A stretch of 64,000 nucleotides of DNA, taken from positions 121,804-185,803 of the forward strand of contig DAOMGE010000001.1 of the NCBI GenBank assembly GCA_035430165.1. The letters run 5' to 3'. Below the pieces are notes generated by a model. That model saw only the letters and a program-made list of their open reading frames with translations. It made no database searches and had not been told where the DNA came from. The stretch is from Pseudomonadales bacterium (GTDB taxonomy: Bacteria; Pseudomonadota; Gammaproteobacteria; Pseudomonadales; UBA7239). The position numbers and the translations under genes are program-made. Positions 32,162 through 59,523 of this stretch are shown in pieces. Each line of letters opens with the position of its first letter. Position 1 is the first letter of the stretch.

Positions 32162-32239
32162 TTTTCCATCCGTCTGACAAAACACACTGATCCCAGAACA
32201 CACTGCTAGAATGCGCACCCGTTTTATTGCCAGCCAGTC

Positions 32240-34279
32240 ATGAGCACGCCATCCGGTCTGAATCCACGCCAACGCGAAGCCGTGCGGTATATCGACGGCC
32301 CCTTGCTCGTGCTCGCTGGCGCTGGCAGTGGCAAGACGCGCGTCATCACCGAAAAAATTTCCTACCTGATTCGCGAATGCGGCATGAAGGCACAGCACAT
32401 TGCCGCTGTCACATTTACCAATAAAGCCGCGCGTGAAATGAAAGAGCGTGTCGGCAAATTGCTAGGCAGTGAAGCACGCGGTTTGCAGGTTTCCACATTT
32501 CACTCACTCGGTCTCGATATTATTCGCCGCGAATTATCCGCGCTCGGTTACAAAAGCGGCTTCTCGATTTTTGACCAGCAGGATGCACAGACACTGATTC
32601 GCGAACTACTGCTGAAAAGCGGCGATGTCGATAGTGATTATATCGATCTCGCGCAAAGCAGTATTTCCAACTGGAAAAACGATTTGCAAACACCGGAGGC
32701 GTTGATCAGCCGCGCCAGCACGCCGGGCGAACTGAATCTCGCGGTTTTATACGAACGTTACCAGCGTTCATTGAAAGCCTATAACGCCGTGGATTTTGAT
32801 GACCTGATTTTGTTGCCGGTGCAATTGTTTGACTCACAGCCAGAGGTGCTGGCGCGTTGGCATAAACGCATTCGCTATTTGCTGGTTGATGAGTATCAGG
32901 ACACCAACTCCGGCCAGTACAAACTGGTGCAACAACTGGTCGGCAATCGCAGCGGATTAACGGTAGTCGGTGATGACGATCAATCGATTTATGCCTGGCG
33001 CGGCGCGCGACCGGAAAACCTGTCGCAACTGAAACATGATTTCCGCGAACTGAAACTGATCAAGCTGGAACAGAATTACCGTTCCTGCGGCCGCATCCTC
33101 AAAGCTGCCAACCAGTTGATCGCCAACAACCCGCACGAATTTGAAAAGCAGTTGTGGAGCGAGCTGGGTTTCGGCGATCCGATACGCGTGTTGCATTGCG
33201 CCAACGAAGAAGCAGAAGCCGAGCGCGTTGCCACAGAAATTCTGGCGCAGCGTTTGCAGCGCCGTGAATATTTCCGCGACTTTGCCGTGCTGTATCGCAG
33301 CAACCATCAGGCACGCCTGCTGGAAGTGCACCTGCAACAGTTACAGATCCCGTACAACATAACGGGTGGCACCTCGTTTTTTGCGCGCGCAGAAATCAAG
33401 GACATCATGGCGTATTTGCGTTTGCTGGTGAATCCGGAAGACGACAACGCTTTCCTGCGCATCATCAATGTGCCGCGCCGGAAGATAGGCCCCGGCACGC
33501 TGGAAAAACTCGGCTTGTATGCACAGAACCGCGACAACAGTCTGTTCAATGTGATTGGCGAAATCGGTATCGAATCCGTGATCACCGGCGAGTCGTTGCA
33601 GCACTTGCGGCATTTTGCGCACTGGCTGGAAAAAATCCGTAAACGCTGCGCATCCGAAAATCCGATAGAAGTCATCAATGAAATGATTGACGACATCGGT
33701 TACGAGGCCTGGCTGCACCAGAATGCCTCGAACGCGAACATTGCCGAGCGCCGCATGGAGAATGTTCGCTATCTGGTGGATACGCTCGGACGTTCATTGA
33801 AGATCAGCGAGGACGATGACACCGACAGCGCGCGTGACAACAATGATTATCTGGATGATGCCATCAAGAAACTGATCCTGCGCGATTTGCTCGAACGCAA
33901 CGAAGAAGAGGAAGACCTGGATCGCGTGCAATTATTAACACTGCACGCCGCCAAGGGTCTCGAATTCCCGCACGTATTTATTCTGGGCTGGGAAGAAGAA
34001 TTGCTGCCGCATCGCAACAGCATCGAGGGCAACCAGATTGAAGAAGAACGCCGCCTCGCCTACGTCGGCATCACGCGCGCGCAGCGAACCCTCACGCTGA
34101 CACTCGCACAGAAACGCAAACAGTACGGACAAGTGAGCGAACCCACGCCCAGCCGTTTCCTCGACGAATTACCAGCAGACGATTTGCAGCGCGAAGGCGG
34201 TGGTCATGCGCTGTCACCCGAGCAACAAGAAAAGAAAGCGCGCGACACTATGGCCAGTCTGAAAAGCCTGTTTGATTAA
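32240..34279 (+). CDS. rep: ATP-dependent DNA helicase Rep (UvrD/Rep SF1)
   Basis: 679 aa. Contains LNPRQREAV, AGAGSGKTRV, LLVDEYQDTN, QNYRS and LLTLHAAKGLEF. The length and lack of a UvrD-type C-terminal extension fit Rep. Confidence 0.92.
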   Translation: MSTPSGLNPRQREAVRYIDGPLLVLAGAGSGKTRVITEKISYLIRECGMKAQHIAAVTFTNKAAREMKERVGKLLGSEARGLQVSTFHSLGLDIIRRELSALGYKSGFSIFDQQDAQTLIRELLLKSGDVDSDYIDLAQSSISNWKNDLQTPEALISRASTPGELNLAVLYERYQRSLKAYNAVDFDDLILLPVQLFDSQPEVLARWHKRIRYLLVDEYQDTNSGQYKLVQQLVGNRSGLTVVGDDDQSIYAWRGARPENLSQLKHDFRELKLIKLEQNYRSCGRILKAANQLIANNPHEFEKQLWSELGFGDPIRVLHCANEEAEAERVATEILAQRLQRREYFRDFAVLYRSNHQARLLEVHLQQLQIPYNITGGTSFFARAEIKDIMAYLRLLVNPEDDNAFLRIINVPRRKIGPGTLEKLGLYAQNRDNSLFNVIGEIGIESVITGESLQHLRHFAHWLEKIRKRCASENPIEVINEMIDDIGYEAWLHQNASNANIAERRMENVRYLVDTLGRSLKISEDDDTDSARDNNDYLDDAIKKLILRDLLERNEEEEDLDRVQLLTLHAAKGLEFPHVFILGWEEELLPHRNSIEGNQIEEERRLAYVGITRAQRTLTLTLAQKRKQYGQVSEPTPSRFLDELPADDLQREGGGHALSPEQQEKKARDTMASLKSLFD

Positions 34280-34311
34280 CAGCGACATAAAGTTTTGGCA
34301 TAGTTATGACC

Positions 34312-36582
34312 TTATTGCGCATTAATCCGCTCGCCAATAGCTGAGCCACGGAAATTGCTATTCATCGGCAACAGCTTTTCGGTGTTGATCGCAGCATTCA
34401 ACGAATCGGCATCGATGTAATCTGGTATACCGTCATTATCATCATCAGGATCAGCGTTGTTGCCAATACCATCGTTGTCGGTATCGCCATACAGCCCAGG
34501 CACAACTTGTGGTGTGGTTTTTGACACCACAGTGTTATCGCCCAGTTGCCCATAGGTATTATTTCCCCAGCATTTGACACTGCCGGATGTTGTCAGGCTG
34601 CACGTATGGTCATAACCGGGAGCAATCACCATGCTGTCATTGCCGATGCCATTCACTGCTACGGGTACATTGCTGTTACTGGTAAGGCCATTGCCGAGCT
34701 GCCCGTTGTTGTTGTATCCCCAACACCTGGCACTACCGTCCGCCAGCACTGCGCAACTGTGGTAATAGCCGATGCCGAAACCGGTGACACCACTGGTGAG
34801 ACCGCTGACATCCACCGGCGTAGTGATTGTCACCGTCGCGGTGCCGTTACCGACTTCACCAGACCCGTTGTGGCCCCAACACTTCAAACCACCGGTTACC
34901 GTGCTTGCGCAAGAAGTGACATAGCCATTATCAATCGCCGCCACACCACTGCCCAGCCCTGACACATCGGTCGGCGACAACTGGCCAACCGTACCACCAT
35001 CACCGATTTCACCCCAGGCACCGTAGCCCCAGCATTTGACCGCGCCGCCCATCATCAGCGCACAGTGATGTGCACCACCAGCAGTAATCGCCAACACACC
35101 GGTCAAGCCCGGCACATCCACCGGTACGACACTCGGGGTTGATATCGCGCCCCAGCATTTCACCGTACCACCCGTCATCAAGGCACAGGTGTGGGATTCA
35201 CCCACCGCGACCGCAGCCACGCCGCTGTCGAGACCCACGACATCAACCGGCGCATTGCGATGGGTTTTTGTGCCATCGCCCAGCTGGCCATTGCCGTTAT
35301 TACCCCAACATTTCAGGCCGCCCGCCTCTGTCACTGCACAGGCACCCACAATGCCGACGCTGATCGATTGGACCCCGCTGGTCAGCCCGACTACATCCAC
35401 TGGCCGGTATTGCGGGCTGTTACCGCCATAACCCAGATCGCCGTAGTCGTTGTGCCCCCAACATTTGGCGCCACCTGCCGCAGTGAGGATGCAGGAAAAC
35501 TGGTAGCCCGCTGCCAATTGCACCACCTTGTCAGCACGAACCGGCAAGACATCACAGGCATCACCCTGCACATCGCCGTCGGTATTTTTCTGGTCCGGAT
35601 TGGGCAGCAGCGTGCAATTGTCCTGAGCATTCGCAACGCCATCTCCGTCGATATCCGGATCGCACGCATTGCCGGTGCCATCCCCATCACTGTCGAGCTG
35701 ATCCGGATTACTGGTAGCAGGGCAATTATCAAGTTGCAATCCGGAACCGGTCTGGCAAGCAACATCGCAGCCCGTTGTCCATCGGTCGGGAAAGCCATCC
35801 GCATCCGCATCCACGGAAGCGGCAGGGTTCAACGGCCAGCGATCATTGCCATCCGGTGCGCCATCATTGTCATCATCCGAATCACAGGCATTGCCTTGTG
35901 CATCACCATCTGTATTGAGTTGATCGGCATTTGAATTCAATGGACAGTTATCTGCGCCGTCCAGCACACCGTCATTGTCACTGTCCGGGTCACACACATC
36001 ACCCAGCCCGTCCTGATCGACGTCAAGCTGATCGGCATTGGGCACCGCTGGGCAGTTATCCGTCACGGTTGTAATGCTCACATCGTCGATATAAGGCTGA
36101 CCGAAGCTGGTCGGCGAGGATATGGTCCACTTGAAAACATGCGCACCCGCGCTGACCAGAAAACTGGATTGCGTATAGGAATACTTGTTTGCCCCAAAAT
36201 AGCCTACCTGAACATTATCGACATAGAACGGTACAGTAGTACCGGAGTTACTAGAGGATTTGGCCCAGAAACTGATCCTGGATGCCTGGGGCAACGTATA
36301 AGCTAATGTCATTACCGGAGGAAACCGGCACTGAATTATGCCCATGGTACAAGCAGTGGCCACATAAGAAGGGGTGCGGGCGGCTGCATCGTTCACTCTG
36401 CTCCATTGGCCAAAAGACCAGCCGGCATCTGCCGTATCAAAAGAAGTTGAATAAATTGTTACACCACCTACGTCATCAATACCGTCACCATCGGTATCAA
36501 CCGCCCAGACAGAAGCACTGAGCAAGCAGCACAAGCCCATCATGCAACGTAAGAAAATAACCGGAACGTCAATTTTTTTCAT
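34312..36582 (-). CDS. Secreted protein: N-terminal beta-sandwich-like domain, TSP type 3 Ca-binding repeats, seven RCC1-type repeats, C-terminal TSP3 repeats and a conserved tail
   Basis: Start at MKKIDVPVIFLRCMMGLCCLLSASVWA (signal peptide). It has repeated DxDxDGxGDxCDxDxDNDG units and seven copies of the G(G/S)xKCWGxNxxGQLG pattern. The tail is ...DNDGIPDYIDADSLNAAIN. Confidence 0.8.
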   Translation of the reverse strand: MKKIDVPVIFLRCMMGLCCLLSASVWAVDTDGDGIDDVGGVTIYSTSFDTADAGWSFGQWSRVNDAAARTPSYVATACTMGIIQCRFPPVMTLAYTLPQASRISFWAKSSSNSGTTVPFYVDNVQVGYFGANKYSYTQSSFLVSAGAHVFKWTISSPTSFGQPYIDDVSITTVTDNCPAVPNADQLDVDQDGLGDVCDPDSDNDGVLDGADNCPLNSNADQLNTDGDAQGNACDSDDDNDGAPDGNDRWPLNPAASVDADADGFPDRWTTGCDVACQTGSGLQLDNCPATSNPDQLDSDGDGTGNACDPDIDGDGVANAQDNCTLLPNPDQKNTDGDVQGDACDVLPVRADKVVQLAAGYQFSCILTAAGGAKCWGHNDYGDLGYGGNSPQYRPVDVVGLTSGVQSISVGIVGACAVTEAGGLKCWGNNGNGQLGDGTKTHRNAPVDVVGLDSGVAAVAVGESHTCALMTGGTVKCWGAISTPSVVPVDVPGLTGVLAITAGGAHHCALMMGGAVKCWGYGAWGEIGDGGTVGQLSPTDVSGLGSGVAAIDNGYVTSCASTVTGGLKCWGHNGSGEVGNGTATVTITTPVDVSGLTSGVTGFGIGYYHSCAVLADGSARCWGYNNNGQLGNGLTSNSNVPVAVNGIGNDSMVIAPGYDHTCSLTTSGSVKCWGNNTYGQLGDNTVVSKTTPQVVPGLYGDTDNDGIGNNADPDDDNDGIPDYIDADSLNAAINTEKLLPMNSNFRGSAIGERINAQ

Positions 36583-36730
36583 TGTGAACCCCTTGGATAA
36601 CAATCCTGTTGTCTGCGGGGAGAAAGCATGGCGCTACAGCCGGACGCCGCCGAACGAAGCTGCCAAACTCCTTGCCGTGTCAGGCTATCATCAATCCGGT
36701 GACTCGGGATAGTCTTCCGAAATGGCGAAA

Positions 36731-36804
36731 AAGGAAAAAGGTGCCGGAGGGATTATTTTTTGAGCAACTGATCATTTTTAAATCCCTCCGGCACCTTTTT
36801 CCTT
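36731..36804. repeat. Perfect 24-bp inverted repeat with a 26-nt AT-rich loop, abutting the stop of the 1382-aa gene (probable strong terminator or structured element)
   Basis: AAGGAAAAAGGTGCCGGAGGGATT (36731-36754) is the exact reverse complement of AATCCCTCCGGCACCTTTTTCCTT (36781-36804). On the minus strand a T-rich run follows the second arm. Confidence 0.85.
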
Positions 36805-39800
36805 CAGACATTCTCATCCAGCGACAATTGTGGTTCTGCTTTTCCACGCCACAATTCGCCGCTGCTGAAACTGTTCCAGCCCCAGCGACACCAGTCGAGC
36901 AGGGCAAACGCCAGCCACAATGACCACGCCAGCATCACGCCGCGGTACATCCACATCGGCAATGACAACGCCCATGCCGTTGGCAGCCCGACGGCGGTGC
37001 GATCTTGAAACCAGTTCAGCGACTGCGCGGTGGACTGGTTGCCGATCACTTGCATATCCGGTGATGACAACAGGCTCATCGGGATCGTGCCCAGCAAACA
37101 ACTGATCATGGCCAGCGTCAGTAACACCAGCAGCACCTGCATGGCATTGAAACGTGAACGCGTGAGTTGGGCAGTCTGCAGGTTGCTGCGCTTGGCCAGC
37201 ACCACAAACCACGCCACCACCAGCAAACTGCCCACGGCATTGACGGTACTCATGCCGAGGCCCAGCAGTACCCACTGCCAGGTTTTTACCGGTGCCAGTT
37301 GCAGGCGACCCAACACCAGCGCCACCAGCAGCATCACCACCAGCACACCCCAGAACAACAGGGCTGGCCCCATCATCGGCCCGCCCGCTGCCAGTAACCA
37401 CCGCCCTTCCGGCAAATGCAAACGCAAGCTGATATTGCTGACCGGTTCGTCCAGCTGCGGCTGCGGCAACACAGTGCGTGCGGCCATCGCCACATCCTGT
37501 CGCCAGCGGATATCGATCTGTTGCACACCGGGATGCAGCGGCAGGCGCAACGTGCCATCACTGGCCGGGTTGCCCTGCTCTTTGCCATCGATCATGACCT
37601 TTTGCAGGTTGCTGCCCGCCGGCAGTTGCAAGGGCAAATCGGCGCCCTGGCTACTGCGCACTTGCAGGCGCAACACGGCATCCGCCGCCCGGATACCCGG
37701 ACTGTAATCCAGCTGTGCCGACTCGATGGTGCGGGTGCTACCTTCCAGCGGCGACGGGCGCGAAATCCCCAGTTGCAGGCTTTCGCCCGGCCACGGCTGC
37801 CAGACCGGCATCGCATCTACTTGCGCGCCCTGTCTGACTGGCGGCAAGCCTTCGGTGTCCACGTGCCAGACCGGCGCGACGTCCAGCACCCACCGCTCTA
37901 CCCAGGGCTGGCCTTCCGCTGCTTTCAACGCCAGTTGCTCCGTCTGCTTCAGGGAAGACACCCAGCTGAACGCTGACTGGTCGGCGCTCATCACCACTGG
38001 CACCTTGCTGTCTTTGACCTCGATACCGGGCGTCAGCACCGCCTCACCCGGCAACAGGTTCACTGCGGTGGTGATCGCGCCGTACTGCGGCGCCACACGC
38101 TCGATGACCGTTTGCACCTGCCAGTCCAGACCCAGCACCAGCGTGCGCGTCACCTTCAGGAATACCGGTGCCGGATCCGGCAGCAGCTGCACCTTCTCTG
38201 CTTCCACTGGATCAGCAACCACGGGTTTGTCGCGGGTCAGCTGCAAGCTGCGTCCGGGCACACCGCCATCCACCAGACCGGACACCTGCCAATCCGTGGC
38301 TGTCACGGCCAGATTGTGTACATCCATGGCAAAGGGCAGCGTGAGCGCATCCGCAACCGGCGCACCTTCCATCACAACGCGGTGTGAACCCGCCGTCACC
38401 ACCACCCACAACAAGCCGCTATCGTCCCGCCGCAAACTGCTGGCGGTTTGGCTGTCGATCAGCACCGAGCGAGGCTGCCACTGGTTGCGGCCCGATGGCA
38501 AGGGCACGGCCACCGTCTCCTGGGCATCGATCTGCAAATCGATGCGCACCGCGCGGTCATCCACCGCGATCTGGCCCTTGTTCAAGCTGGCACACTGCGG
38601 CTCACAATCCGGCAGGCGCAACAGGCGCTTTTCCAGCTCTTCCAGCATGGCCTTGTCGGGAATCTCGGCGCGTGCCGCTGACGGCGGCAACAAAAATACA
38701 GCCGCCAGTACGAACGACAGGACCGGGGCCGCAGGCACCGGCGACGATTGCAGCCGCCACGCCAGCAAGGGGTTTGCCGCCCGCAATAACAGCGCCACAA
38801 AACCGCCAGCCAATGCCACCGACAAGGCATTCCACAACCGGTGCAGGAACGGGGACAACAGGTACAACTGCAGGGATTGCTGTTGCGTCACCGGCCCACT
38901 CCACTGCAACTGCACACGCTGCCACTGCCAGGCCGGCTCGCCGGGCCCAGTTTGTACCTTGGCGTTGCTGTCGTAGCCTGTAGGTAATTTTTCGCGCTTG
39001 GCCTTGGCCGGGCGCACGGCATAGCTGGCAGGTGCGGTAGGCGCATTGGCCACCTTGTCTTCCAGTGCGCCTTCTGCAGTGCGGGTACGGATTTCATCAA
39101 CCTCGGCATTCGCTTGCAACGGCTCCGCCACCTCCTTCTCGGCAGGCACTGCAGAGGCTGCCACCTCCACCGGCACGTGACCCTGAATGGCGGCATAGGC
39201 TCCCAGCTCCAGCTGCGGATACAAGCCCTTGCGCACCTGATCGACAGAAAATTGCAGCAGCTGCAACACCAGCAATAACAGCCCCAGCATCAAATAGACC
39301 GACACCAGTTTGTGCAACTTGCCTGTAGGCAGGACGCGCAACAGCGTCAGTGCCACCAGCGCGTTCAGCCACAGGAAAATCGGTGCCTTGTCGCTGTGGT
39401 AGGTCAGCACCAGCGTCAGCAAGGCCACCAGACCGGCCTGCCAACCCAGCAGACGCGACGTGCCTGCCGCCACGATCAGCACCAGAAAGATGGCCCACAA
39501 ATTCCAGCGCGCCAGCCACGACAGCTGCACCTTGTCCACGCCACCGGCATGCAACAGCATCCAGCCGGGCGGCAAGTGCAAAGTGGCCGAAGCATGCGCA
39601 ACGTCCTGCTGCCAGGCGGTTGCCGGCAGTGCGGTGTGTCTTTCAATACGACTCATGCTGCTCAGGCTGAGCGCACCGGGGCGCAATTCGATGCCCGCCG
39701 CTTCCCCGTCGCGGCGCGTGATCAGCCTGGGTTCGCCGTTAACATCGACCCGGCCCAGCACTTGTGGTGGCGCCATCGAAAAACGGGCAGCCTGTTTCAG

Positions 39801-40952
39801 CGTACCTGTCACCACATCGCGACTGGTAAACGCCTGGCCATCAAAATCCAGCCATACATCGCGCTTCAGGTTCAGGGAATCGCCAATGGCAGCCGCCCCG
39901 CTATCCCCGCGCCGCTGCTCGGTCAGCACCAGCTTGTCTTGTGGATGCAGCAGCCACGCCGGCAGTGCACGCCAGGCCGGCGGCAGATCGGTTTGCGAGG
40001 GATCAATGCTGCTGGCACCCGACAGGCTGATCTGGCGCAGGCTGCGATCGTCCTGCAGCGACCAGATTTCTTCTGCGGGCCACACATCGTCCATCCGCTT
40101 CATGGAAAAAGCAGTGGGTTGCTCCTTGGTGGATTGTCTTTCGGCGCGAGCCAGCAGGCGCACTTCCCCGGAGCCGGCACGCAACTGCACGCGCAAGCGG
40201 CCATCCGGCTCGATGCGGGCGGGCAGCGGTGACTCCAGTGACAGCGGCTGCATGCCGTCTGGCAAGAACTGGCCGAGCAGCACTTCGCGATCACGGCCAG
40301 CCACCTGCAGGCGCACAACGGTTTCCAGCTGGACCGGGATATCGTCAATCAGGCGACGGAACACCTGCACCGTCAGGGCATCGGCGACCACATCCGGTGG
40401 CGGCGCGTTCCCGGCCGGGGCATCGCCAAACAGCAACTGGCCCGCGCCATCCACGGATGGATTCGCTACCGCCTTGCCGTTCAGCGTCAGGGACAGCAGG
40501 CCCGTATCCGCCGGGAGCGTCAGGCGCGGCGGCAATTTGTCCCAGTGCAGGGCTCCCTGCAGGCGATATTCCCCCGCCGCCAGCCAGATCACCGGCTTGC
40601 CATCGCGAGCAATCACCGGCAGCGTCTTGTCATTCACCCGCACATTTTGCGGCCAGTATTCACTATCGCCCGGCAGCCAGACCCAGCCCGGCGTATAGAG
40701 CTGCCAATCCTGGCTGAAGGTCGCGCCTCTGGCGTCGGCTTCCAGTGCCAATCGGCCTGGCCATGAACATACATGCTCACCCAGCGCCGCATACGCCGCT
40801 GGACACGCAAGGTCCTTGTGCTGCTCCAGCACCCAGTTGCGCCAGGGCTGCAAGGGTTCCGGCACATTCACCGGTGCCGCTGACGCCTCCGCAGCCAGTG
40901 ATATCGACAATACGGCCAGACAAACGAGCCCGTACTTACGCAATCGCGACAT
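36804..40952 (-). CDS. Giant polytopic membrane protein, family not recognised (signal peptide, two large soluble regions, three hydrophobic clusters)
   Basis: The ATG at 40952 has GGGAGAA 7 nt upstream; the ORF-track start at 40970 is TTG. The protein is 1382 aa and begins MSRLRKYGLVCLAVLSISLAAEASA. The reading frame is long, uninterrupted and GC-rich. Hydrophobic clusters lie mid-protein and at the C-terminus. Confidence 0.7.
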   Translation of the reverse strand: MSRLRKYGLVCLAVLSISLAAEASAAPVNVPEPLQPWRNWVLEQHKDLACPAAYAALGEHVCSWPGRLALEADARGATFSQDWQLYTPGWVWLPGDSEYWPQNVRVNDKTLPVIARDGKPVIWLAAGEYRLQGALHWDKLPPRLTLPADTGLLSLTLNGKAVANPSVDGAGQLLFGDAPAGNAPPPDVVADALTVQVFRRLIDDIPVQLETVVRLQVAGRDREVLLGQFLPDGMQPLSLESPLPARIEPDGRLRVQLRAGSGEVRLLARAERQSTKEQPTAFSMKRMDDVWPAEEIWSLQDDRSLRQISLSGASSIDPSQTDLPPAWRALPAWLLHPQDKLVLTEQRRGDSGAAAIGDSLNLKRDVWLDFDGQAFTSRDVVTGTLKQAARFSMAPPQVLGRVDVNGEPRLITRRDGEAAGIELRPGALSLSSMSRIERHTALPATAWQQDVAHASATLHLPPGWMLLHAGGVDKVQLSWLARWNLWAIFLVLIVAAGTSRLLGWQAGLVALLTLVLTYHSDKAPIFLWLNALVALTLLRVLPTGKLHKLVSVYLMLGLLLLVLQLLQFSVDQVRKGLYPQLELGAYAAIQGHVPVEVAASAVPAEKEVAEPLQANAEVDEIRTRTAEGALEDKVANAPTAPASYAVRPAKAKREKLPTGYDSNAKVQTGPGEPAWQWQRVQLQWSGPVTQQQSLQLYLLSPFLHRLWNALSVALAGGFVALLLRAANPLLAWRLQSSPVPAAPVLSFVLAAVFLLPPSAARAEIPDKAMLEELEKRLLRLPDCEPQCASLNKGQIAVDDRAVRIDLQIDAQETVAVPLPSGRNQWQPRSVLIDSQTASSLRRDDSGLLWVVVTAGSHRVVMEGAPVADALTLPFAMDVHNLAVTATDWQVSGLVDGGVPGRSLQLTRDKPVVADPVEAEKVQLLPDPAPVFLKVTRTLVLGLDWQVQTVIERVAPQYGAITTAVNLLPGEAVLTPGIEVKDSKVPVVMSADQSAFSWVSSLKQTEQLALKAAEGQPWVERWVLDVAPVWHVDTEGLPPVRQGAQVDAMPVWQPWPGESLQLGISRPSPLEGSTRTIESAQLDYSPGIRAADAVLRLQVRSSQGADLPLQLPAGSNLQKVMIDGKEQGNPASDGTLRLPLHPGVQQIDIRWRQDVAMAARTVLPQPQLDEPVSNISLRLHLPEGRWLLAAGGPMMGPALLFWGVLVVMLLVALVLGRLQLAPVKTWQWVLLGLGMSTVNAVGSLLVVAWFVVLAKRSNLQTAQLTRSRFNAMQVLLVLLTLAMISCLLGTIPMSLLSSPDMQVIGNQSTAQSLNWFQDRTAVGLPTAWALSLPMWMYRGVMLAWSLWLAFALLDWCRWGWNSFSSGELWRGKAEPQLSLDENV

Positions 40953-41037
40953 AGCTATTTCTCCCTGCAAACCGGCAGCCTATCGTTGAATACCAACGAT
41001 ACACAAAAAAGGGGACAGATGCGTTTGTCAGATCCCG

Positions 41038-43290
41038 TTATTGCTCGAGCGATTGCCGCTCGCGGAAGACACTGCCTTTGTAATGGCCATCCAGTGGCAA
41101 TAGTGCTTCGACGTTAATACCGGCATTGAGCGGTGCGGCATCGATGTAATCCGGCACGCCATCGTTGTCGTCGTCAAGGTCCCGGCTATTTGGCACACCA
41201 TCGTTGTCGGTGTCCAGCGGCAACAGGTCGGAGAAATCCGTCTGGCCATCGCCGTCGTCATCACTGTCTGTCGTGTCTGCCGCGCCGTCGCTATCAGTGT
41301 CCAGCCATGCGCCCTGCCCATTGAACAGGTACACCGCGCGGCTGGTGGTTGAACTGACAGCGATATCGGCATAACCGTCACCGTTGATATCGCCGGTATC
41401 ACACACGGCAGCCCCGAAGAAAGCATCCCCGATGAACGAGTAGAGAACCGAGCCGTCCATGCCACTGAAAACCCTTGCCTTGCCGGAGCCATTGCCGCTG
41501 CCGACGATCACATCGGCGCGCCCGTCGTGGTTAACATCACCGGCACCGCTGACGGCAGAGCCAAAGTAGTTGCCGCTCTTGTCGCCTGTGAATGTGTAGA
41601 GGGTATTGCCATTGGCGCCACTGAAAACGCGTGCCATGCCGGCAGAGGATCCGTTTGGATCGGCCAGGTAGGCACCAGCTATGATGTCCGGACGCCCGTC
41701 GCCATCCACATCACCAGCCTTGCTGATACTACTGCCGAGTAAATCGCCGGCCTGGTCGCCGTCCAGGGTATAGAGGATGCTGCCGTCACTGCCACTGAAT
41801 ACGCGCACAGATCCGGACAGACTGCCGTTGTTGTCGTCGTAAGGTGCACCGACAGCCACGTCGTCATGGCCATCGCCATTCACATCGCCAATACCGCTGA
41901 CGGCGAGGCCGAAATTGTCGCCTGCACTGTCCCCGTTGAATGTGTAGAGCAAGCTGCCATTCGCACCACTGTAGACGTAAGCCGCGCCTGCGTTGTTGCC
42001 GGTGCTGTCATTCTGGAAAGCACCCACCAGAATATCGGCCTTGCCGTCACCATTGACATCCCCTGCGCCGCTGACGGCAATGCCGAAACCGTCGCCGGCA
42101 GCCTGCCCATTAAATGTATAAAGCACGGCGCCATTGGCGCCGCTTAACACGCGTGCCGATCCTGCCCCGTCGCCCGTGTTGTCATCGCCGTAGGCACCAA
42201 CAACCAGGTCGGGATAACCGTCACCGTTGACATCGCCGGCACCCGCTACCGAGCGGCCGAGCCAGTCCAGCGCGTTGTCACCGTAAAAGGTGAACAATGT
42301 GCTGCCGTTCGCGCCACTCAGGACATACGCCGCGCCGGCACTGGTGCCGTGGGTGCTGTCGGCATAGGCGCCGACAATGAGGTCGTCCACGCCGTCCTGG
42401 TTAATGTCGCCGGCGTTATCCATGGCGCTGCCGAAGGAGTCGGTATTCTTGCTGGTTTTTCCCAGCAGATTGCTGTCGCCCGTGGTGCGAGAGGGGTCGG
42501 TGGGAAAAGCATCCTGCGCATCAGCCGTGCCGTCATTGTCGTCATCGTTATCGCAGGCATTGCCTGAGCCGTCGGTATCACTGTCTGTTTGGCTGGTATT
42601 GCTGACGGCGGGGCAGTTGTCGACAAACCCGTCGACGCCATCATTGTCGATATCGCCGGCCTGGGCCGGGTCCAGCGGGAACTGGTCGTAGATGTCGAGT
42701 ACGCCGTCGTTGTCATCATCACTGTCACAGGCGTTGCCAGCACCATCACCGTCGTAATCGGCCTGATCGACGTTGTGGCTGTTCGGGCAGTTGTCCGAGG
42801 CATTGGCGATGTTGTCGAAATCCTGGGTATCCAGCTGGTCGAGCCCGCTGAAGCTGATGGATTTCAAGCCGGGCGCCGTGGTGTTCAGGGATGTCCGGAA
42901 TATTTCCCATTCCAGGGTGTGGGTACCGGCAGCCACATTGAAGCTGCAGCTGGTAGTTGTGCAGCTGGATTGCAGGGCGGCGTCGTAGCGTAGTTGGATG
43001 CAGTTGATTGAACAGGTGTTGCTTTGCTGCCATGTCAGCGTATAGGCATTGCCATTAGTGACGGTCAGGGTCAGTTTGGCACTGGCGGTTGTGTTGGATG
43101 CCACGCCTGCGCCGAGCAGGACGGTTGCGTTACTGGTAACAAGCCACGTGGGCCCCGGCGGTAAATTTGCGCTGATGAGAAAAGTGAAGGTCGCATCGGC
43201 CGCGCTGGCTGCTGGAGCGACAAGCATTCCTATTGGCCATAGGGCGACGGCCAACAGACGACTGAAGCGGGATAAGATCCAATGTGGCAT
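41038..43290 (-). CDS. Secreted protein: N-terminal beta-sandwich-like domain, TSP type 3 repeats, seven FG-GAP (integrin-alpha-like) repeats, C-terminal TSP3 repeats and a conserved tail
   Basis: Signal peptide LLAVALWPIGMLVAPAASAADA. It has DxDxDGxGNACDxDDDNDG repeats and seven copies of FGxAVSGAGDVNGDGxxDxxVGA. The tail is ...DNDGVPDYIDAAPLNAGIN. Confidence 0.8.
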   Translation of the reverse strand: MPHWILSRFSRLLAVALWPIGMLVAPAASAADATFTFLISANLPPGPTWLVTSNATVLLGAGVASNTTASAKLTLTVTNGNAYTLTWQQSNTCSINCIQLRYDAALQSSCTTTSCSFNVAAGTHTLEWEIFRTSLNTTAPGLKSISFSGLDQLDTQDFDNIANASDNCPNSHNVDQADYDGDGAGNACDSDDDNDGVLDIYDQFPLDPAQAGDIDNDGVDGFVDNCPAVSNTSQTDSDTDGSGNACDNDDDNDGTADAQDAFPTDPSRTTGDSNLLGKTSKNTDSFGSAMDNAGDINQDGVDDLIVGAYADSTHGTSAGAAYVLSGANGSTLFTFYGDNALDWLGRSVAGAGDVNGDGYPDLVVGAYGDDNTGDGAGSARVLSGANGAVLYTFNGQAAGDGFGIAVSGAGDVNGDGKADILVGAFQNDSTGNNAGAAYVYSGANGSLLYTFNGDSAGDNFGLAVSGIGDVNGDGHDDVAVGAPYDDNNGSLSGSVRVFSGSDGSILYTLDGDQAGDLLGSSISKAGDVDGDGRPDIIAGAYLADPNGSSAGMARVFSGANGNTLYTFTGDKSGNYFGSAVSGAGDVNHDGRADVIVGSGNGSGKARVFSGMDGSVLYSFIGDAFFGAAVCDTGDINGDGYADIAVSSTTSRAVYLFNGQGAWLDTDSDGAADTTDSDDDGDGQTDFSDLLPLDTDNDGVPNSRDLDDDNDGVPDYIDAAPLNAGINVEALLPLDGHYKGSVFRERQSLEQ

Positions 43291-43444
43291 GCAACATTCC
43301 TGATCTTGTGTTATTGCTTTTCACTCTATCAGCATTCACCAAGTCCTAGAACCCTGCCCCCGCTTTTCCAGAGAAAAAGTTGACCACCCTGCCATTTAGG
43401 CACACGATGGGCCGAAGTGTGACGGAAATCACAGCAGTCGTCGT

Positions 43445-45079
43445 ATGCCCACAAGTCTTCAAGCTGTCCTGGATCGAAGAAAAACCGTGCCCCTGCGTAT
43501 GTTCAGGAACCTGTCCTTGCGCACGTCCTATACATTGGTGGCCGCCCTGCTGATCGTCGCCGGGTTCCGTCGCATGTACCACATCGACTCTGTCGGGCTG
43601 TGGTCAGATGAACTCTGGGGCGTGTTTGCCTGCTCACAAGGCAGCTGGTGGGCCATGATCCAGGATCTGGTTCACAACGACTCCCACCCGCCGGGTTACC
43701 AGACTCTCTTGTACTGGTGGATAAAGGCGTTTGGCGAAAGCGACATTGCCGTGCGCCTGCCCTCGGTCATTGCCGGCGTTGCATCGGTGGCGTTCACGTA
43801 TTTGTTGGGCAAGCGGCATTTTTCTGTTATCGCCGGCATCATCGCTGCCGCCATGGTCACCGGTTCTTTCTATGCGATCTATTACAGTCAGGAAGCGCGT
43901 GCCTACGCATTCCTGATGTTTTTTGCGCCGACGATGACGCTCTATTTCATCGATTTATTCGTCAGCAAAAACCACGACAAATATTCACTTCCCCTGTTCT
44001 GGCTGGTAAGTACCGCATGCATGTACTTCCACTACGTCGGTTTTGTTTTTGTCGGTTCTGCTTTGTTACTGAGTCTGTTTTTCTGGATGTACGACCGGCG
44101 CAGACAGGGTCATCTGCAACTTGTCTTCAAGGCCTTTTCCCCTTGCCTGATACTGTATCTGCCCTGGCTGCCGGTGATGTACCAGCACATGGCGCACTCG
44201 CCGGATGACTGGTCAACACCGGTGCCGGATCTGCCTGTTTTATGGCAAACCGTGCGATTTTTGTTCGGGCCTGACGATCTGCGGCTCTATCTTTTACTCG
44301 TCAGCATCGTGATGGCACACATTGTCTGGATTACCCGGTTTTTTAATTCCAGCAGCGCACCAGCTATCAGGTCGTACAACGACTACAAGTACAGGGCGTT
44401 CATCTGCCTGGCCTGGCTGACGTGGATTCCAATACTGGTCTTTTATTTCAAATCCCAGTTCAGCCAATCAGTTTATACACTGCGGCATTTCACCTATGCC
44501 ATCCCGCTCATCGCCATCATGGCCTCGCTGTTTCCTGCCCTGTTGATTTCAAAAATTGCTAACCACACCTGGCGATCTTCCGTACTGGTCATGCTGCTGC
44601 TGACTATCGCCGCCATCAACACGCGCGGCAATGATGATAACCGGCTGTATAACAACTACCTGCGCGAAGATTATCGCGGTGCCGTGGATATTGTGCGCCA
44701 TGATTTCCGGTTCATGTCCACCAATCCCGCCGACCGGATTGTGATTACGTCCAATGTTTTTTTTGACCACTACCTGCGGCTGTACGACCTGAAACCCCAT
44801 GCAGACATGGTGATGTCATCTGTCGGACAAATGAGCGAACTGGAAGCACTGCTGGAAAAAGAAAAACCCGACCGTTTCTATTTCCTGGAAGTCAGCGGCA
44901 AGGAAACGTCACCCTTGCTGGCGGCGCTGGAAAGCCGGTTTGCCACACGTTGCTTTTCCCGTCTCAACAAGATGAATGTATTCAAGTTCCTGAACCAGCC
45001 ACGACCCGCTGACCAGCTGCCTCGCAGTGAGCTGCATGACTGCCCGCTGAAAAGCAGTGTCAAACCTATGTCGGAATAA
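43445..45079 (+). CDS. GT-C fold glycosyltransferase, family 39/83-like (ArnT/PMT-like)
   Basis: About 12 hydrophobic segments. The N-terminal loop LWSDELWG...HPPGYQTLLYWW...ESDIAVRLPSVIAG is typical of ArnT/PMT-type enzymes, and a C-terminal soluble domain follows. The start could be 43445 or 43499. Confidence 0.7.
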   Translation: MPTSLQAVLDRRKTVPLRMFRNLSLRTSYTLVAALLIVAGFRRMYHIDSVGLWSDELWGVFACSQGSWWAMIQDLVHNDSHPPGYQTLLYWWIKAFGESDIAVRLPSVIAGVASVAFTYLLGKRHFSVIAGIIAAAMVTGSFYAIYYSQEARAYAFLMFFAPTMTLYFIDLFVSKNHDKYSLPLFWLVSTACMYFHYVGFVFVGSALLLSLFFWMYDRRRQGHLQLVFKAFSPCLILYLPWLPVMYQHMAHSPDDWSTPVPDLPVLWQTVRFLFGPDDLRLYLLLVSIVMAHIVWITRFFNSSSAPAIRSYNDYKYRAFICLAWLTWIPILVFYFKSQFSQSVYTLRHFTYAIPLIAIMASLFPALLISKIANHTWRSSVLVMLLLTIAAINTRGNDDNRLYNNYLREDYRGAVDIVRHDFRFMSTNPADRIVITSNVFFDHYLRLYDLKPHADMVMSSVGQMSELEALLEKEKPDRFYFLEVSGKETSPLLAALESRFATRCFSRLNKMNVFKFLNQPRPADQLPRSELHDCPLKSSVKPMSE

Positions 45080-45848
45080 ACTGCAACACGCACAAGACAA
45101 GACCGACAACCCCGAAGGATGACATCAGCGCAATTTCGAACACACGACGGCGACCTGAATAGGTTTTTTCTGTTTTATGGAAAATGTTTTTTACCAGCCA
45201 GCTCAGAAAAATCATCAGGCAAATTGCTGCCACCAGCAGGCGCATCATCTGCGCCATATTCCCCATTTGCGCACCGGCACCAACAAAGACTGCCGGCACC
45301 GCTTCCGGTAAAAAACCGATAAAACTTCCAAGCAGGAATTCCCAATGCGACACGGCAGACAAGCCGAGCACCACGTTGGCAATAAAACCACTGATCGGCA
45401 TCTGGCGAATCAGGAAAATGGAAACAATGCCGTGGCTTTCAATCGTGTTTAACAGGTCTTCCAGCTTCGGCCATTTGTGCAGGACAAAATCCGCACCGAA
45501 AATTCGCGCAAAGATAAATGTGGCATACGCGCCCAATGTAACGCCGAGTTGCGACAGGATGATTCCCCACCACACACCGTAAGCCAGACCACCCAGCGCG
45601 CACACCAGCAAGCGCGGCATGCCGAGTGCGCAGGCGATTGCCGATGCCACAACGAAATAAAAATAACCGGCAACACCGAAGCTGACAAGCCAGTCACGCA
45701 CGGCCTGCATACTGGGCAGCGATTCAAAATCTGCCAGCGTATGCAAATGCGAGAGTGACAGGCGCAGCGGTGAAAACCAGGCAAAGATGCCCGCACCAAT
45801 CAACAGCACCAGAAAAAAAACGCGCTTCCGTAACAGAAAGTGACGCAT
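45066..45848 (-). CDS. TVP38/TMEM64 family membrane protein (DedA superfamily)
   Basis: 260 aa polytopic protein with F.ARIFG...RQMPI.GF..N...G motifs characteristic of the family. Confidence 0.7.
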   Translation of the reverse strand: MRHFLLRKRVFFLVLLIGAGIFAWFSPLRLSLSHLHTLADFESLPSMQAVRDWLVSFGVAGYFYFVVASAIACALGMPRLLVCALGGLAYGVWWGIILSQLGVTLGAYATFIFARIFGADFVLHKWPKLEDLLNTIESHGIVSIFLIRQMPISGFIANVVLGLSAVSHWEFLLGSFIGFLPEAVPAVFVGAGAQMGNMAQMMRLLVAAICLMIFLSWLVKNIFHKTEKTYSGRRRVFEIALMSSFGVVGLVLCVLQFIPT

Positions 45849-45877
45849 GAACCGTCGCGCAGCCCGCGTTGGATTAC

Positions 45878-46939
45878 CTACGATTTACGGCCGAGTTTGC
45901 AATGCGTTGGTGTGAACGGCAGGAACACTTCCTTGCCGGTTTCGATGGATTCGTACAGCGCCACCAGCAGTTCAATACTCTTGCGCGCTTCACGGCCATC
46001 CACCAGTTGCGGCTTGTTGTTCACCAGACAATCGACCACATGCTTGTAATAGGCGCTGTGGCCAAAGCCGTAAACATCCGGCGGATTGACGGAATATTTC
46101 TCGATGACATCCGCATCGCCTTCCTGTTCTTCAACAAAACGCCAGGTCTGCATCTTGTTCACGGCAAAACCGCCGATAACCACAGTGCCCTTGTCTCCCA
46201 ACATGGAAATGGAACCTTCCAGGTCGACCGGACGTGCGCAGGTCGTGGCTTCCACCACACCGAGTGCACCGTTGCGAAATTTTACCGTGCCGACTGCCGT
46301 GTCTTCCGCTTCGATATCCACCAATGCGGTAATCGATTTGGCAAACACACTTTCCACGTCGCCCATCATCCAGCGCAACATATCGATGTGATGTACCGCC
46401 TGGTTTGTCAACACCCCGCCGTCCTGCGCCCACGTGCCGCGCCACGCATCCTGGCTGTAATATTTCTGGTCACGACTCCAGCGTACCCGCAAGGTGCCCA
46501 GCACCAGTTTGCCAAGGCGGCCCTGGTCACGCGCTTCTGCCATTTTCACCACGGGCACGTTGAAACGGTTCTGGTGCACAACAAATAAACGGACATTATT
46601 TTTGTCGCAAGCTTCGATCATCGCATCGGCATCAGCCAGCGACATCGCCATCGGTTTTTCGACAAGGATAGGCTTGCCGTATTTCGACAAACCGATCACG
46701 TGTTCGGCGTGATCGCCACTGGGCGTCAGCACCGATACCACGTCAATATTTTCTTTCTGCATCATCTCGTGCATATCGCGATACGCCGGCACATTCCACT
46801 GTGCTGCCATTTTTTCGGCGCGCGGGAAATCGATATCACACACGGCTGCCAGTTGGGCGCCTTCGGTATGGCCGCTGCCGAGCAGTTCAGCGTGGCGTTT
46901 CGCGATACGGCCGCAGCCAACCAGAGCAAATCTGAGCAT
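45878..46939 (-). CDS. Gfo/Idh/MocA family NAD(P)-dependent oxidoreductase (nucleotide-sugar dehydrogenase-like, WbpB-like)
   Basis: 353 aa. Has the N-terminal Rossmann motif LRFALVGCGRIAKRH and the EKPMA motif (ILVEKPMAMS). Confidence 0.85.
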   Translation of the reverse strand: MLRFALVGCGRIAKRHAELLGSGHTEGAQLAAVCDIDFPRAEKMAAQWNVPAYRDMHEMMQKENIDVVSVLTPSGDHAEHVIGLSKYGKPILVEKPMAMSLADADAMIEACDKNNVRLFVVHQNRFNVPVVKMAEARDQGRLGKLVLGTLRVRWSRDQKYYSQDAWRGTWAQDGGVLTNQAVHHIDMLRWMMGDVESVFAKSITALVDIEAEDTAVGTVKFRNGALGVVEATTCARPVDLEGSISMLGDKGTVVIGGFAVNKMQTWRFVEEQEGDADVIEKYSVNPPDVYGFGHSAYYKHVVDCLVNNKPQLVDGREARKSIELLVALYESIETGKEVFLPFTPTHCKLGRKS

Positions 46940-47003
46940 GATGTTTCCCCCTGAAGAAAATTAATCGTGCGATTTTAGCACAGCACGCATTCGGCTTCTT
47001 TGT

Positions 47004-47600
47004 TCAGCGACTTCCCACACCCAGCAACACGGCTACGCCCAGCCCGACAAAAATCAGGGCGGCAATGCTGTGAACCAGCTTCAGCGGGATCTTGTGTGCC
47101 GCCTGGCTGCCAACAATCACTGCGGGCACATTGGCGATCATCATGCCCAGCGTCGTACCGCCCACTACCCAGGCCAGCGATTGCGCATACTGCGCCGCGA
47201 GTGCAACGGTAGCGATCTGTGTCTTGTCTCCCATTTCCGCCAGGAAGAAAGCAATGACCGTGGTGATGAACACACTCGCATGCGGTTTCGCCAGCACCGC
47301 ATCATCGTCATCGAGCTTGTCGGGCACCATGATCCAGCCCGCCATCAGCAGGAAGCTGATACCGAGTATCCAGCGCAATAATTCCGGCCCGAGCAGGTGT
47401 GTGACGTAAGCGCCCAGTATCCCGGCACCGGCGTGATTGACGATGGTCGAAACGAAAATCCCGAAAATAATGGCGAGATGATGCTGGCGATAACGTGCTG
47501 CCAGTACCAGCGACAACAGTTGCGTCTTGTCACCGATTTCTGCCAGCGCAACGATGCCGGTCGATACCAGGAAGGGTTCGATAGTCGACAAGAATGTCAT
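47004..47600 (-). CDS. UPF0016/GDT1 (TMEM165) family cation (Ca2+/Mn2+) transporter
   Basis: 198 aa with two copies of the E-x-G-D-K-T motif (AEIGDKTQLL and AEMGDKTQIA). Confidence 0.85.
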   Translation of the reverse strand: MTFLSTIEPFLVSTGIVALAEIGDKTQLLSLVLAARYRQHHLAIIFGIFVSTIVNHAGAGILGAYVTHLLGPELLRWILGISFLLMAGWIMVPDKLDDDDAVLAKPHASVFITTVIAFFLAEMGDKTQIATVALAAQYAQSLAWVVGGTTLGMMIANVPAVIVGSQAAHKIPLKLVHSIAALIFVGLGVAVLLGVGSR

Positions 47601-47803
47601 CAGAGTTTTTTATCCTGCGCATCCACTTCTTCCGATTCCCTGATCAGGAAAGACAACACCAGGAACACGCCCAGTACCGCAAACTCGGTAATCAGCAGCT
47701 TGGCAAAGGTTTCATCCGTCCAGATGGAAAACCAGAGTTGGCCGAGACCCGTGACGACACCGAGCAGGAACACAACAAAACAGACAATCTGCATGGCATT
47801 CAT
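47600..47803 (-). CDS. Small two-TM membrane protein, unknown function
   Basis: 67 aa with two hydrophobic helices and an acidic C-terminus. Its stop overlaps the downstream GDT1 start (TGATG), which suggests translational coupling. Confidence 0.45.
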   Translation of the reverse strand: MNAMQIVCFVVFLLGVVTGLGQLWFSIWTDETFAKLLITEFAVLGVFLVLSFLIRESEEVDAQDKKL

Positions 47804-47818
47804 TCTTTGTGTCCCGTG

Positions 47819-48157
47819 TTACGGATTTTCAATCGGCACCACCTTCACGGCAGTGCCATAGCACAACACTTCGGTGACGCCCGCCATCAACTCGGTGGCG
47901 TCGTAGCGCATGCCGATGATGGCATTGGCACCGCTGTTGCTCGCGTGCTGGCACATGATCTTGTAGGCATCGGTGCGCGCTTTCTCACAGAGGTTGGTGT
48001 AGATGCTGATGTTGCCCCCAAGAATAGTCTGCAGGCCGCCAAAAAAATTGCCTATGATCGAACGCGAACGCACCACAATGCCGCGCACAATGCCGACGTT
48101 ACCAACGATGCGATAGCCGGGAAGTTCCAGCGCTGATGTCACCATGGATGGGGTCAT
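47819..48157 (-). CDS. ybjQ: YbjQ/UPF0145 family protein
   Basis: Start at MTPSMVTS (48157), with AGGAAA upstream. G.V.G..VRSRSI...F.GGL..I.GG.I..YT.L....R..A...M...A...GANA..G.R.D is the UPF0145 pattern. Confidence 0.85.
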
Positions 48158-48370
48158 GAATTTTTCCTGCTGGCAGTGGGTATGGGGCGCGATTCTACCG
48201 GCGCGCTGCCGCAGCTGTATACCAACCCGCACGCGAGGCAGAGCACGGCGGGGATTACCGCAGCCATCACCGGCCGGGGACGGCCATCTGTTACACTGGG
48301 GACTCCTAGTTCGTCCTCCCCGCCGCGGGTTGCAGCCATGCTGTCAGCGGCCACCCTCCCGCGAGATACC

Positions 48371-59439: not shown

Positions 59440-59523
59440 TCCGCTATACTGCCCACGCGCCCTGATCTTGTAAAGTGAACGGACGAGTAAAGCAAACAGG
59501 CTTGTAAAGCAAACGGGAGTGGT

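Follow-up and report, generated by a model that had tools for sequence, protein, structure and literature searches.

Do three adjacent genes for a glycosyltransferase, a membrane protein and a sugar oxidoreductase form one periplasmic glycosylation arm, and does this arm serve the secreted proteins encoded beside them? The question is raised by positions 43445-46939 of a 64-kb stretch of a contig from the metagenome-assembled genome of an uncultured Pseudomonadales bacterium (DAOMGE010000001.1, assembly GCA_035430165.1), the whole of which we call the window. A gene for a GT-C glycosyltransferase (43445-45079, plus strand, 544 residues) converges here on two minus-strand genes, which encode a VTT/DedA-superfamily protein (VTT; 45066-45848, 260 residues) and a Gfo/Idh/MocA oxidoreductase (Gfo; 45878-46939, 353 residues). 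On balance, we favour the view that Gfo and VTT are the detached core of a module resembling the Arn system of lipid A modification, with partners elsewhere in the genome, and that a rearrangement put the GT-C, a separate enzyme of ArnT fold, beside them. The trio is most likely inner-membrane machinery that decorates an envelope glycolipid, in the first place lipopolysaccharide (LPS), by means of polyprenyl-phosphate sugars, and not one self-contained operon.

The three genes are confirmed to be real and under purifying selection. Full-length homologues were found for them, and the ratios of nonsynonymous to synonymous substitution rates (dN/dS) between the window and a sibling contig (L006) are 0.121 for GT-C, 0.071 for VTT and 0.022 for Gfo. 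In Pfam, the GT-C matches PMT_2 (E 3.3e-10, 40.9 bits against a cut-off of 26.1), VTT matches VTT_dom (E 8.7e-19, 68.6 bits against 33.9), and Gfo has both the N-terminal and C-terminal GFO_IDH_MocA domains (each E ~1e-30). Of the two minus-strand genes, Gfo comes first, with 29 nucleotides (nt) between its stop and the start of VTT on the same strand. Direct reading of the sequence places the GT-C stop codon TAA at 45077-45079 and the VTT stop (CTA on the plus strand) at 45066-45068, so the two 3' ends overlap by 14 nt (45066-45079) and leave no space for a terminator between the genes. A convergent overlap, of 20 nt, is also present in L006. A promoter and terminator scan of 43000-48200 gave counts no better than those in shuffled sequence. 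On its other side, the GT-C gene diverges from a gene with Pfam FG-GAP and TSP_3 matches (41038-43290, minus strand). An earlier reading of this DNA, made from the letters alone (the sequence-only reading), had described the coordinates, strands, divergence and 14-nt overlap in the same way.

A conserved Gfo-VTT module at other loci

The strongest clue to the function of Gfo and VTT is the company they keep elsewhere. From the contexts of VTT homologues and a metagenome scan, we collected 13 independent loci with a VTT orthologue outside the window lineage, counting overlapping contigs of one genome once (L091/092, L093, L094, L095, L096-098, L099, L100, L101, L102, L103, L104, L108 and L109). 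The VTT orthologue occurs together with a Gfo orthologue at all 13, and no other genes of the module are so closely linked. Identity to the window Gfo is 66-91% in the nearer clades and ~50% in the most distant, and identity to the window VTT is 39-78%. A DegT aminotransferase and a GT2 of ~250 residues are shown in 12 of the 13 loci; the exception is L102, whose contig begins inside Gfo and whose gene order, that of L094, would put DegT-GT2 upstream of the contig start. One or two PMT_2 GT-Cs are likewise shown in 12 loci, the exception being L104, whose contig ends at VTT. In L094 the genes run DegT-GT2-Gfo-VTT-GT-C on a single strand with overlapping frames, and VTT is followed directly by a PMT_2 gene in L094, L102 and L108.

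The partner enzymes resemble those of the Arn system. The module GT2 is closest to ArnC (PDB 9bhc, E 1e-33; NCBIfam ArnC, E 1.5e-40), and of six module GT-Cs tested, five match ArnT and nothing else in NCBIfam (88-106 bits), the one from L094 having no NCBIfam match. One of the module GT-Cs (PMT2a) also matches the ArnT structure 5ezm (E 2.5e-11). The DegT is nearest to C3-aminotransferases such as QdtB and WbpE and shows more than 60% identity among the 120 best homologues listed. At L091 the module abuts genes with KdsD-, KdsC-, LptC-, LptA- and LptB-type domains. We identify the Gfo-VTT loci as a predicted Arn-like, polyprenyl-phosphate-dependent pathway of periplasmic glycosylation, in which a DedA-superfamily protein stands at the position of ArnE/F. 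Apart from VTT, the module has no conserved small membrane protein. This kind of system is known from Arn, Lgm, Flm and Rgt; a variant with a Gfo 3-dehydrogenase entry and a constant COG0398 DedA protein was not found described, and a literature search on TVP38-type proteins in glycosylation clusters returned nothing relevant.

Two candidate additions to the module were rejected. An open reading frame (ORF) of 115 residues in L091 was considered as a conserved ArnE/F- or GtrA-like flippase; it is present in L091 only and has no Pfam match at E<=0.1. A nucleotide-sugar dehydrogenase beside the module was considered as the source of UDP-N-acetylglucosaminuronic acid (UDP-GlcNAcA) for Gfo, but its score is that of a UDP-glucose 6-dehydrogenase, and in L095 it is part of a second, Rgt-like module. 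That second unit (L095, 1325-6904) consists of a UDP-glucose 6-dehydrogenase, a GalE-like epimerase, a 246-residue VTT and an ArnC-like GT2, converging on an ArnT-like PMT_2 protein of 542 residues. In L095 (8289-9962) and L096 (8254-9939), the module VTT itself is fused to a C-terminal domain of ~310 residues without a Pfam match, giving 557-561 residues in total. A possible function of this extension is that of an accessory domain, enzymatic or periplasmic, in the pathway.

We suggest the following sequence of reactions. Gfo would oxidise C3 of a UDP-sugar, either UDP-N-acetylglucosamine (UDP-GlcNAc) or UDP-GlcNAcA, and the DegT enzyme would aminate the oxidised sugar. The ArnC-like GT2 would then load the 3-amino sugar onto undecaprenyl phosphate, the COG0398 DedA protein may translocate either this lipid-linked sugar or the spent carrier, and ArnT-like GT-C enzymes would transfer the sugar in the periplasm. 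We infer this chemistry, the substrate, the VTT role and LPS as acceptor from homology and genomic context.

The first step agrees with what is seen in the window Gfo. Its residues 1-341 align at ~50% identity with PDB 3q2k (E 4e-85, 289 bits) and 3q2i (E 5e-81, 276 bits), with the EKP motif (EKPMA) and an NQAxHxxD stretch conserved in the alignment. The database labels of these entries are "oxidoreductase" and "dehydrogenase"; we take them to be the WlbA UDP-GlcNAcA 3-dehydrogenases of Bordetella pertussis and Chromobacterium violaceum. The second-best NCBIfam match is an archaeal UDP-GlcNAc 3-dehydrogenase model (130 bits). Homologues of 57-60% identity are found on Azospirillum plasmids in polysaccharide clusters, one of them followed directly by a DegT gene, and this context supports a role as a sugar-nucleotide 3-dehydrogenase. 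As a cultured example of the module, the same plasmid loci were rejected, since they are ordinary polysaccharide clusters without VTT. Gfo thus has the fold, the EKP lysine and the full-length similarity of WbpB/WlbA, and "WbpB-like sugar-nucleotide 3-dehydrogenase" is a fair description of its predicted function. The label WbpB-like, already given to it from the letters, holds at this level. The genomic context is a separate matter: none of WbpA, WbpE, WbpD and WbpI is encoded within the window, and at the orthologous Gfo loci a WbpE-like DegT is present, with no acetyltransferase or 2-epimerase gene seen beside it.

The VTT protein belongs to a family of current interest. DedA proteins have recently been recognised as lipid-carrier flippases relevant to polymyxin resistance, and the COG0586 branch is the only one with an assigned role; COG0398 is the branch nearest to eukaryotic VMP1, TMEM41B and TVP38. 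With the profile of the window VTT family, the scores are 68 bits for Escherichia coli YdjX and 60 for YdjZ, but 17 for DedA and 6 for YqjA. YdjX is also the name that the Joint Genome Institute (JGI) gives to more distant relatives. By profile score, the window protein falls in the COG0398 (YdjX/YdjZ, TVP38-like) subfamily, in agreement with its earlier placement in the TVP38/DedA superfamily. Its family alignment (A2) has 21 invariant columns, none of them an acidic residue; they include G75, P77, R78 and L79 (GMPRLL) and R147, Q148 and P150 (RQxP). The GMPRLL and RQxP motifs, with R78 and R147, are taken to be re-entrant loops. Proteins of the COG0586 branch are undecaprenyl-phosphate flippases of the UptA and YghB type (PMC10127716, PMC9876793). 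Unlike these, COG0398 proteins have an unknown function in bacteria, are linked only to aerobic metabolism and are argued to be improbable as undecaprenyl-phosphate flippases (Todor et al. 2023, PMC10127716). The evidence that DedA proteins recycle polyprenyl-phosphate carriers, on which the sequence-only reading drew, comes from COG0586; the window protein belongs to the branch judged unlikely to flip them.

The window GT-C and its pairing with Gfo and VTT

The GT-C protein of the window, 100% identical to HQQ62075.1, is less easily classified by sequence. A search against PDB gave zero matches at E<=1, the NCBIfam ArnT model does not match, and a mycobacterial mannosyltransferase model matches weakly (24.7 bits). 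We built a 28-sequence family alignment (A1), from which the invariant residues were read and an AlphaFold2 model was made. D55-E56 (in LWSDELWG) are invariant in the first periplasmic loop, just past the first transmembrane helix, which comes after a positively charged N-terminus. H81-P82-P83 (the HPP motif, 81-83), S148, E150, A151 and R152 within YYSQEARAY (146-154), and C503 and C533 in the C-terminal domain are also invariant. The two cysteines are consistent with a periplasmic location of that domain.

The structural model gives a clearer answer. It has a predicted local distance difference test (pLDDT) score of 89.9 and a predicted template-modelling (pTM) score of 0.89, and a fold search with it gave 32 PDB matches at E<=0.001, all those listed being GT-C enzymes. 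The top whole-length match is Cupriavidus ArnT (5ezm; TM-score 0.56-0.57, E 1.5e-7), and others include fungal Pmt4, in third place, catalytic subunits of oligosaccharyltransferase and DPY19. Judged by this model, the protein is a genuine GT-C enzyme of ArnT-like architecture. The multi-pass fold with a periplasmic C-terminal domain and the acidic residues in the first extracytoplasmic loop agree with the GT-C superfamily. Membership of ArnT/GT83 finds no match to the family model and no arn genes within the window; for PMT/GT39, the PMT_2 match is present, but a MIR domain and a PF02366 match are both absent. The description "ArnT/PMT-like" agrees with the PMT_2 domain and with ArnT as the closest predicted fold. 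The enzyme probably uses a polyprenyl-phosphate sugar donor and an envelope acceptor.

An exhaustive profile search with A1 gave ~40 clusters (50% identity) above 370 bits, followed by a tail of 5,018 proteins at E<=1e-30. A1 is therefore one small subclade within a large PMT_2 family, as yet uncharacterised. The named loci of its full-length relatives all come from metagenome-assembled genomes (MAGs) of uncultured Pseudomonadales or Cellvibrionales. As far as its sequences indicate, A1 is a separate, fast-evolving clade restricted to uncultured Pseudomonadales.

The neighbourhoods of A1 relatives differ from the module. Relatives of 42-55% identity adjoin a gene of the major facilitator superfamily (MFS) and rpiA; the MFS protein may be AmpG-like, as weak Acatn matches hint. 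One relative is located near lpxK and kdsB, and two tandem paralogues (L004) lie in a cluster with sulfatase, YfdI_N and acyltransferase genes. The proteins without Pfam assignment beside the A1 GT-Cs in L001 and L004 gave zero Pfam matches at E<=0.1. Distant relatives (27-30%) lie in a conserved GT87/PMT_2/PMT_2/methyltransferase/DegT/GT2/FdtA-hexapeptide/GtrII cluster, and distant clade members adjoin ArnC-like GT2 genes. This cluster occurs downstream of carB-greA in several Pseudomonadales MAGs (L015, L017, L021 and L022; for example L021, 7070-18034). It encodes an A1-like PMT_2 protein of 770 residues, a GT2 of 322 residues and a bifunctional FdtA-hexapeptide enzyme, and it groups four GT-C enzymes with what is probably one lipid-linked donor, a 3-acetamido-3,6-dideoxyhexose.

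A Gfo or VTT orthologue is never adjacent at ~16 other A1-clade loci, and tblastn of the window VTT and Gfo against 90 loci found them in L006 only. GCA_964509075.1 is the closest representative genome; it has its likely A1 orthologue (55% identity) on contig 1, beside an MFS gene and rpiA, and a complete module with two GT-Cs of its own on contig 10. The sibling contig L006 retains the convergent GT-C/VTT/Gfo arrangement, with identities to the window of 98% for UvrD, 98% for Gfo, 91% for VTT, 87% for a 1388-residue protein and 82% for GT-C, and the arrangement is gone beyond that sibling. The pairing of GT-C with VTT-Gfo is lineage-specific.

The window holds orthologues of the module Gfo (91%) and VTT (78%), and these two are all that it and L006 keep of the five-gene module (Gfo, VTT, DegT, GT2 and GT-C). 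The module DegT, GT2 and GT-Cs gave no tblastn match in the whole 64-kb window, and Pfam annotation of the remaining window revealed no sugar-pathway partners. A DegT protein (P0145) considered as a candidate from the MAG of the window was rejected, as it has the accession prefix HSC and comes from another assembly (GCA_035456205.1). BLASTP of the window GT-C against the module GT-Cs found no match to any; with the A1 profile, these module proteins reach no more than 34 bits, and members of the A1 clade itself reach 430-715 bits. Profile-profile comparison relates the window GT-C to the module ArnT-like GT-Cs only remotely (97% probability, 18% identity). At the level of these comparisons, the window GT-C is shown not to be the usual transferase of the module. 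The flanks of Gfo-VTT on both sides also differ between the window and L091. Since the partners are missing from the window, A1 is distinct, the two units are on separate contigs in GCA_964509075.1 and the flanks differ, we conclude that the module was split in this lineage. The earlier proposal that the three genes jointly supply and transfer a modified sugar is thus right in part: at other loci Gfo, a DedA protein and a GT-C do stand together in a predicted polyprenyl-phosphate route, but the window is without DegT and GT2, and its adjacent GT-C is non-cognate.

Synonymous divergence (dS) from L006 varies along the locus, being 0.90 for GT-C (43445-45079) and 0.72 for VTT, with 0.48 for Gfo and 0.36 for UvrD (32240-34279). 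The raised values in GT-C and VTT could come from recombination with divergent alleles at an envelope locus, or from weaker codon bias.

The secreted-protein block and rival explanations

Comparison with L006 also bears on the second half of our question. The DNA of L006 aligns with the window in four collinear blocks (29361-34280, 36814-40967, 43379-46951 and 47598-48172), with 84-91% identity in the flanks, and the trio is part of this shared backbone. Between the blocks lie three exact single-gene insertions in the window (or deletions in L006): an RCC1/TSP3 gene (34281-36813), the FG-GAP/TSP3 gene (40968-43378) and a gene for a GDT1-family cation transporter (46952-47597). Each occupies an intergenic gap of the backbone, and no mobile-element genes were seen. 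The remaining member of the block, a protein of 1388 residues (36804-40970, minus strand), starts with a sequence like a signal peptide and has transmembrane helices in several clusters, together with two large domains that are probably periplasmic. Pfam and NCBIfam gave no match to it, also when it was searched against Pfam in thirds at E 0.1, and it shows 87% identity and a dN/dS of 0.12 against L006, where it is the direct divergent neighbour of GT-C. It is a polytopic membrane protein and not a plain secreted one, and the ancestral divergent neighbour of GT-C.

These data speak against the proposal that the PMT-like GT-C O-glycosylates the neighbouring TSP3, FG-GAP and RCC1 proteins in the periplasm, which we regard as very improbable. 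L006 keeps the trio, GT-C included, without both TSP3 genes, so the functional link to the secreted-protein block that the sequence-only reading had raised finds no support at this locus. The co-occurrence of the trio with TSP3/propeller genes, examined at the locus level, fails too: other A1 loci have no TSP3, FG-GAP or RCC1 neighbour, save for one DUF5122/TSP_3 gene ~4 kb from the tandem A1 paralogues of L004. This gene, the PMT_2 match, the weak mycobacterial mannosyltransferase match and the third-best fold match to fungal Pmt4 are what can be said for protein glycosylation. However, the similarity of the L004 protein is confined to FG-GAP and aspartate-rich TSP3-type repeats, the best full-length fold match is to ArnT, and a MIR domain is missing. 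Somewhat less remote, though still improbable, is a purely cytoplasmic role, in which Gfo and a DegT encoded elsewhere make the 3-amino derivative UDP-GlcNAc3N for a diamino-sugar lipid A backbone, VTT and GT-C being unrelated; this is compatible with the other explanations. The GnnA/GnnB chemistry on which it is modelled is said to have been described by Sweet and colleagues in 2004. The strong conservation of Gfo (98% in L006) and of DegT (above 60% among the 120 best homologues listed), the archaeal UDP-GlcNAc 3-dehydrogenase match of Gfo and the kds and lpt genes beside the module in L091 would fit it. Yet GT2, VTT and GT-C would be needless for such a role, and distant lineages have them interspersed among Gfo and DegT in a single operon whose frames overlap; moreover, Gfo remains with VTT even when parted from DegT, as in the window.

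The most serious rival accepts the trio as a functional unit. In it, the A1 GT-C took over as the periplasmic transferase of the amino sugar made by the Gfo pathway, VTT acts as the flippase, and DegT and GT2 come from elsewhere. The window GT-C does occupy the position of a module GT-C, directly past the 3' end of VTT as in L094, L102 and L108; the convergent overlap is retained in L006 despite 18% divergence of the GT-C protein, and a PMT_2 gene beside VTT should be rare by chance a priori. In addition, the distant A1-like GT-Cs (L015, L017, L021 and L022) cluster with DegT and an ArnC-like GT2, and therefore the wider clade would use lipid-linked amino sugars. Against this stand the A1 loci themselves, ~16 of which have a GT-C without Gfo or VTT orthologues, and the module loci, where an A1-like GT-C is found in 0 of 13. 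In GCA_964509075.1, A1 and the module are on different contigs and the module retains its own two GT-Cs, and the conservation between the window and L006 reflects recent common ancestry (UvrD is 98% identical). We consider this explanation rather unlikely, though less so than the two above.

We therefore return to the detached Gfo-VTT core with a separate GT-C alongside. Since Gfo and VTT are under strong purifying selection and yet stand alone, DegT, GT2 and a cognate GT-C would be encoded elsewhere in the genome. The module would have been broken up in this lineage, and a lineage-specific rearrangement would have set the A1 GT-C against VTT. Several points weigh against this view. The placement of the partners elsewhere is drawn from their absence in the 64-kb window. 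Few PMT_2 genes are expected per genome, so a chance adjacency of GT-C to VTT-Gfo is unlikely, and both units seem to have been moved from different ancestral neighbourhoods, which hints at selection for co-location and favours functional coupling. The sugar substrate of Gfo would be one of two, UDP-GlcNAc or UDP-GlcNAcA, and LPS is suggested as the acceptor by two things, the ArnT similarity and the single LPS-gene neighbourhood of L091. Finally, Todor et al. 2023 (PMC10127716) argue that COG0398 proteins are without the residues that a flippase of undecaprenyl phosphate should have.

Two further features of the window stand apart from the trio. A protein of 741 residues with TPR and GT41 (OGT/SPY-like) domains (57370-59595, minus strand; GT41 E 2e-86) is predicted to glycosylate proteins in the cytoplasm and to have no relation to the GT-C arm. 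A GH3 (NagZ-like) gene and a gene for a PCMT methyltransferase flank a pair of ORFs (14348-17968, minus strand) that encode 320 and 884 residues and have no Pfam match.

Significance and comparison with known systems

What these findings chiefly offer is a genomic association, conserved between loci, that suggests a role for COG0398 DedA proteins and could make their function directly testable. Across distant lineages, Gfo and VTT are found paired in a module like ArnB/ArnC/ArnT at each of the loci compared outside the window lineage, and the pair is kept even when the module is split, as in the window. We propose that COG0398 proteins either translocate a polyprenyl-phosphate amino sugar or recycle the carrier during modification of an envelope glycolipid. 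More tentatively, and with considerable doubt, one may imagine that they are dedicated translocators of the lipid-linked 3-amino sugar (or of the spent carrier) in an undescribed Arn-like pathway, and that their Gfo-DedA core was re-paired here with a new ArnT-fold GT-C clade. The module further suggests that uncultured Pseudomonadales from the sea or soil probably decorate the Gram-negative envelope with a 3-amino sugar in a manner hitherto undescribed. Within the window, there is a two-gene fragment and a non-cognate GT-C only, and the unsupported link to the secreted TSP3 proteins is removed.

The closest known system is Arn (PmrHFIJKLM), with ArnA, ArnB, ArnC, ArnD, ArnE/F and ArnT, which adds 4-amino-4-deoxy-L-arabinose (Ara4N) to lipid A. 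As we propose for the module, it proceeds by oxidation of a UDP-sugar, DegT-type amination, GT2 loading on undecaprenyl phosphate, flipping and GT-C transfer. The module GT2 and GT-Cs are similar in sequence to ArnC and ArnT, and ArnT is the top fold match of the window GT-C. There are, however, clear differences. Oxidation in the module would be carried out by a Gfo/Idh/MocA 3-dehydrogenase, whereas ArnA is a short-chain dehydrogenase/reductase (SDR) C4 oxidase-decarboxylase; the module has neither a formyltransferase nor a deformylase; and in place of an ArnE/F-type small flippase it has the COG0398 DedA protein. Its GT2 is a catalytic domain only, of 248 residues, aligned to residues 8-225 of the 316 of ArnC. 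The window itself holds only the dehydrogenase and the DedA protein, next to a GT-C without a match to the ArnT model.

The entry reaction recalls the WbpA/B/E/D/I (WlbA-D) pathway to UDP-2,3-diacetamido-2,3-dideoxymannuronic acid (UDP-ManNAc3NAcA) described in PMC10622841. Gfo is ~50% identical to 3q2k/3q2i, the presumed WlbA structures, and the module DegT resembles WbpE. In contrast to that pathway, a WbpD-type acetyltransferase, a WbpI 2-epimerase and a WbpA-type UDP-GlcNAc 6-dehydrogenase are absent from the window, and none was seen beside the module Gfo; in L096 a nucleotide-sugar dehydrogenase does lie near the module, but by its score it is a UDP-glucose 6-dehydrogenase. The Wbp product feeds cytoplasmic O-antigen assembly, whereas the module product would enter the GT2/GT-C route.

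That route has several relatives. Bordetella LgmABC and Rhizobium RgtE/RgtA-D each combine a synthase for a polyprenyl-phosphate sugar with ArnT-like GT-Cs that act on lipid A or core. The sugars of these systems and of Francisella Flm are galactosamine (GalN), mannose, glucosamine (GlcN) or galacturonic acid (GalA), not a 3-amino sugar, and to our knowledge none of the three has a Gfo 3-dehydrogenase or a DedA-superfamily gene. FlmF1/FlmF2/FlmK of Francisella glycosylate lipid A with an ArnC-like GT2 and an ArnT-like GT-C (PMC2233673). The Rgt galacturonic acid system (RgtE/RgtF/RgtA-D) is resembled by the second, dehydrogenase-epimerase-VTT-GT2 unit of L095, but that unit has a DedA-type protein. 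As for the DedA superfamily, the window VTT shares its VTT/DedA domain and belongs to the COG0398 branch, and it differs by lying in operons for glycolipid modification.

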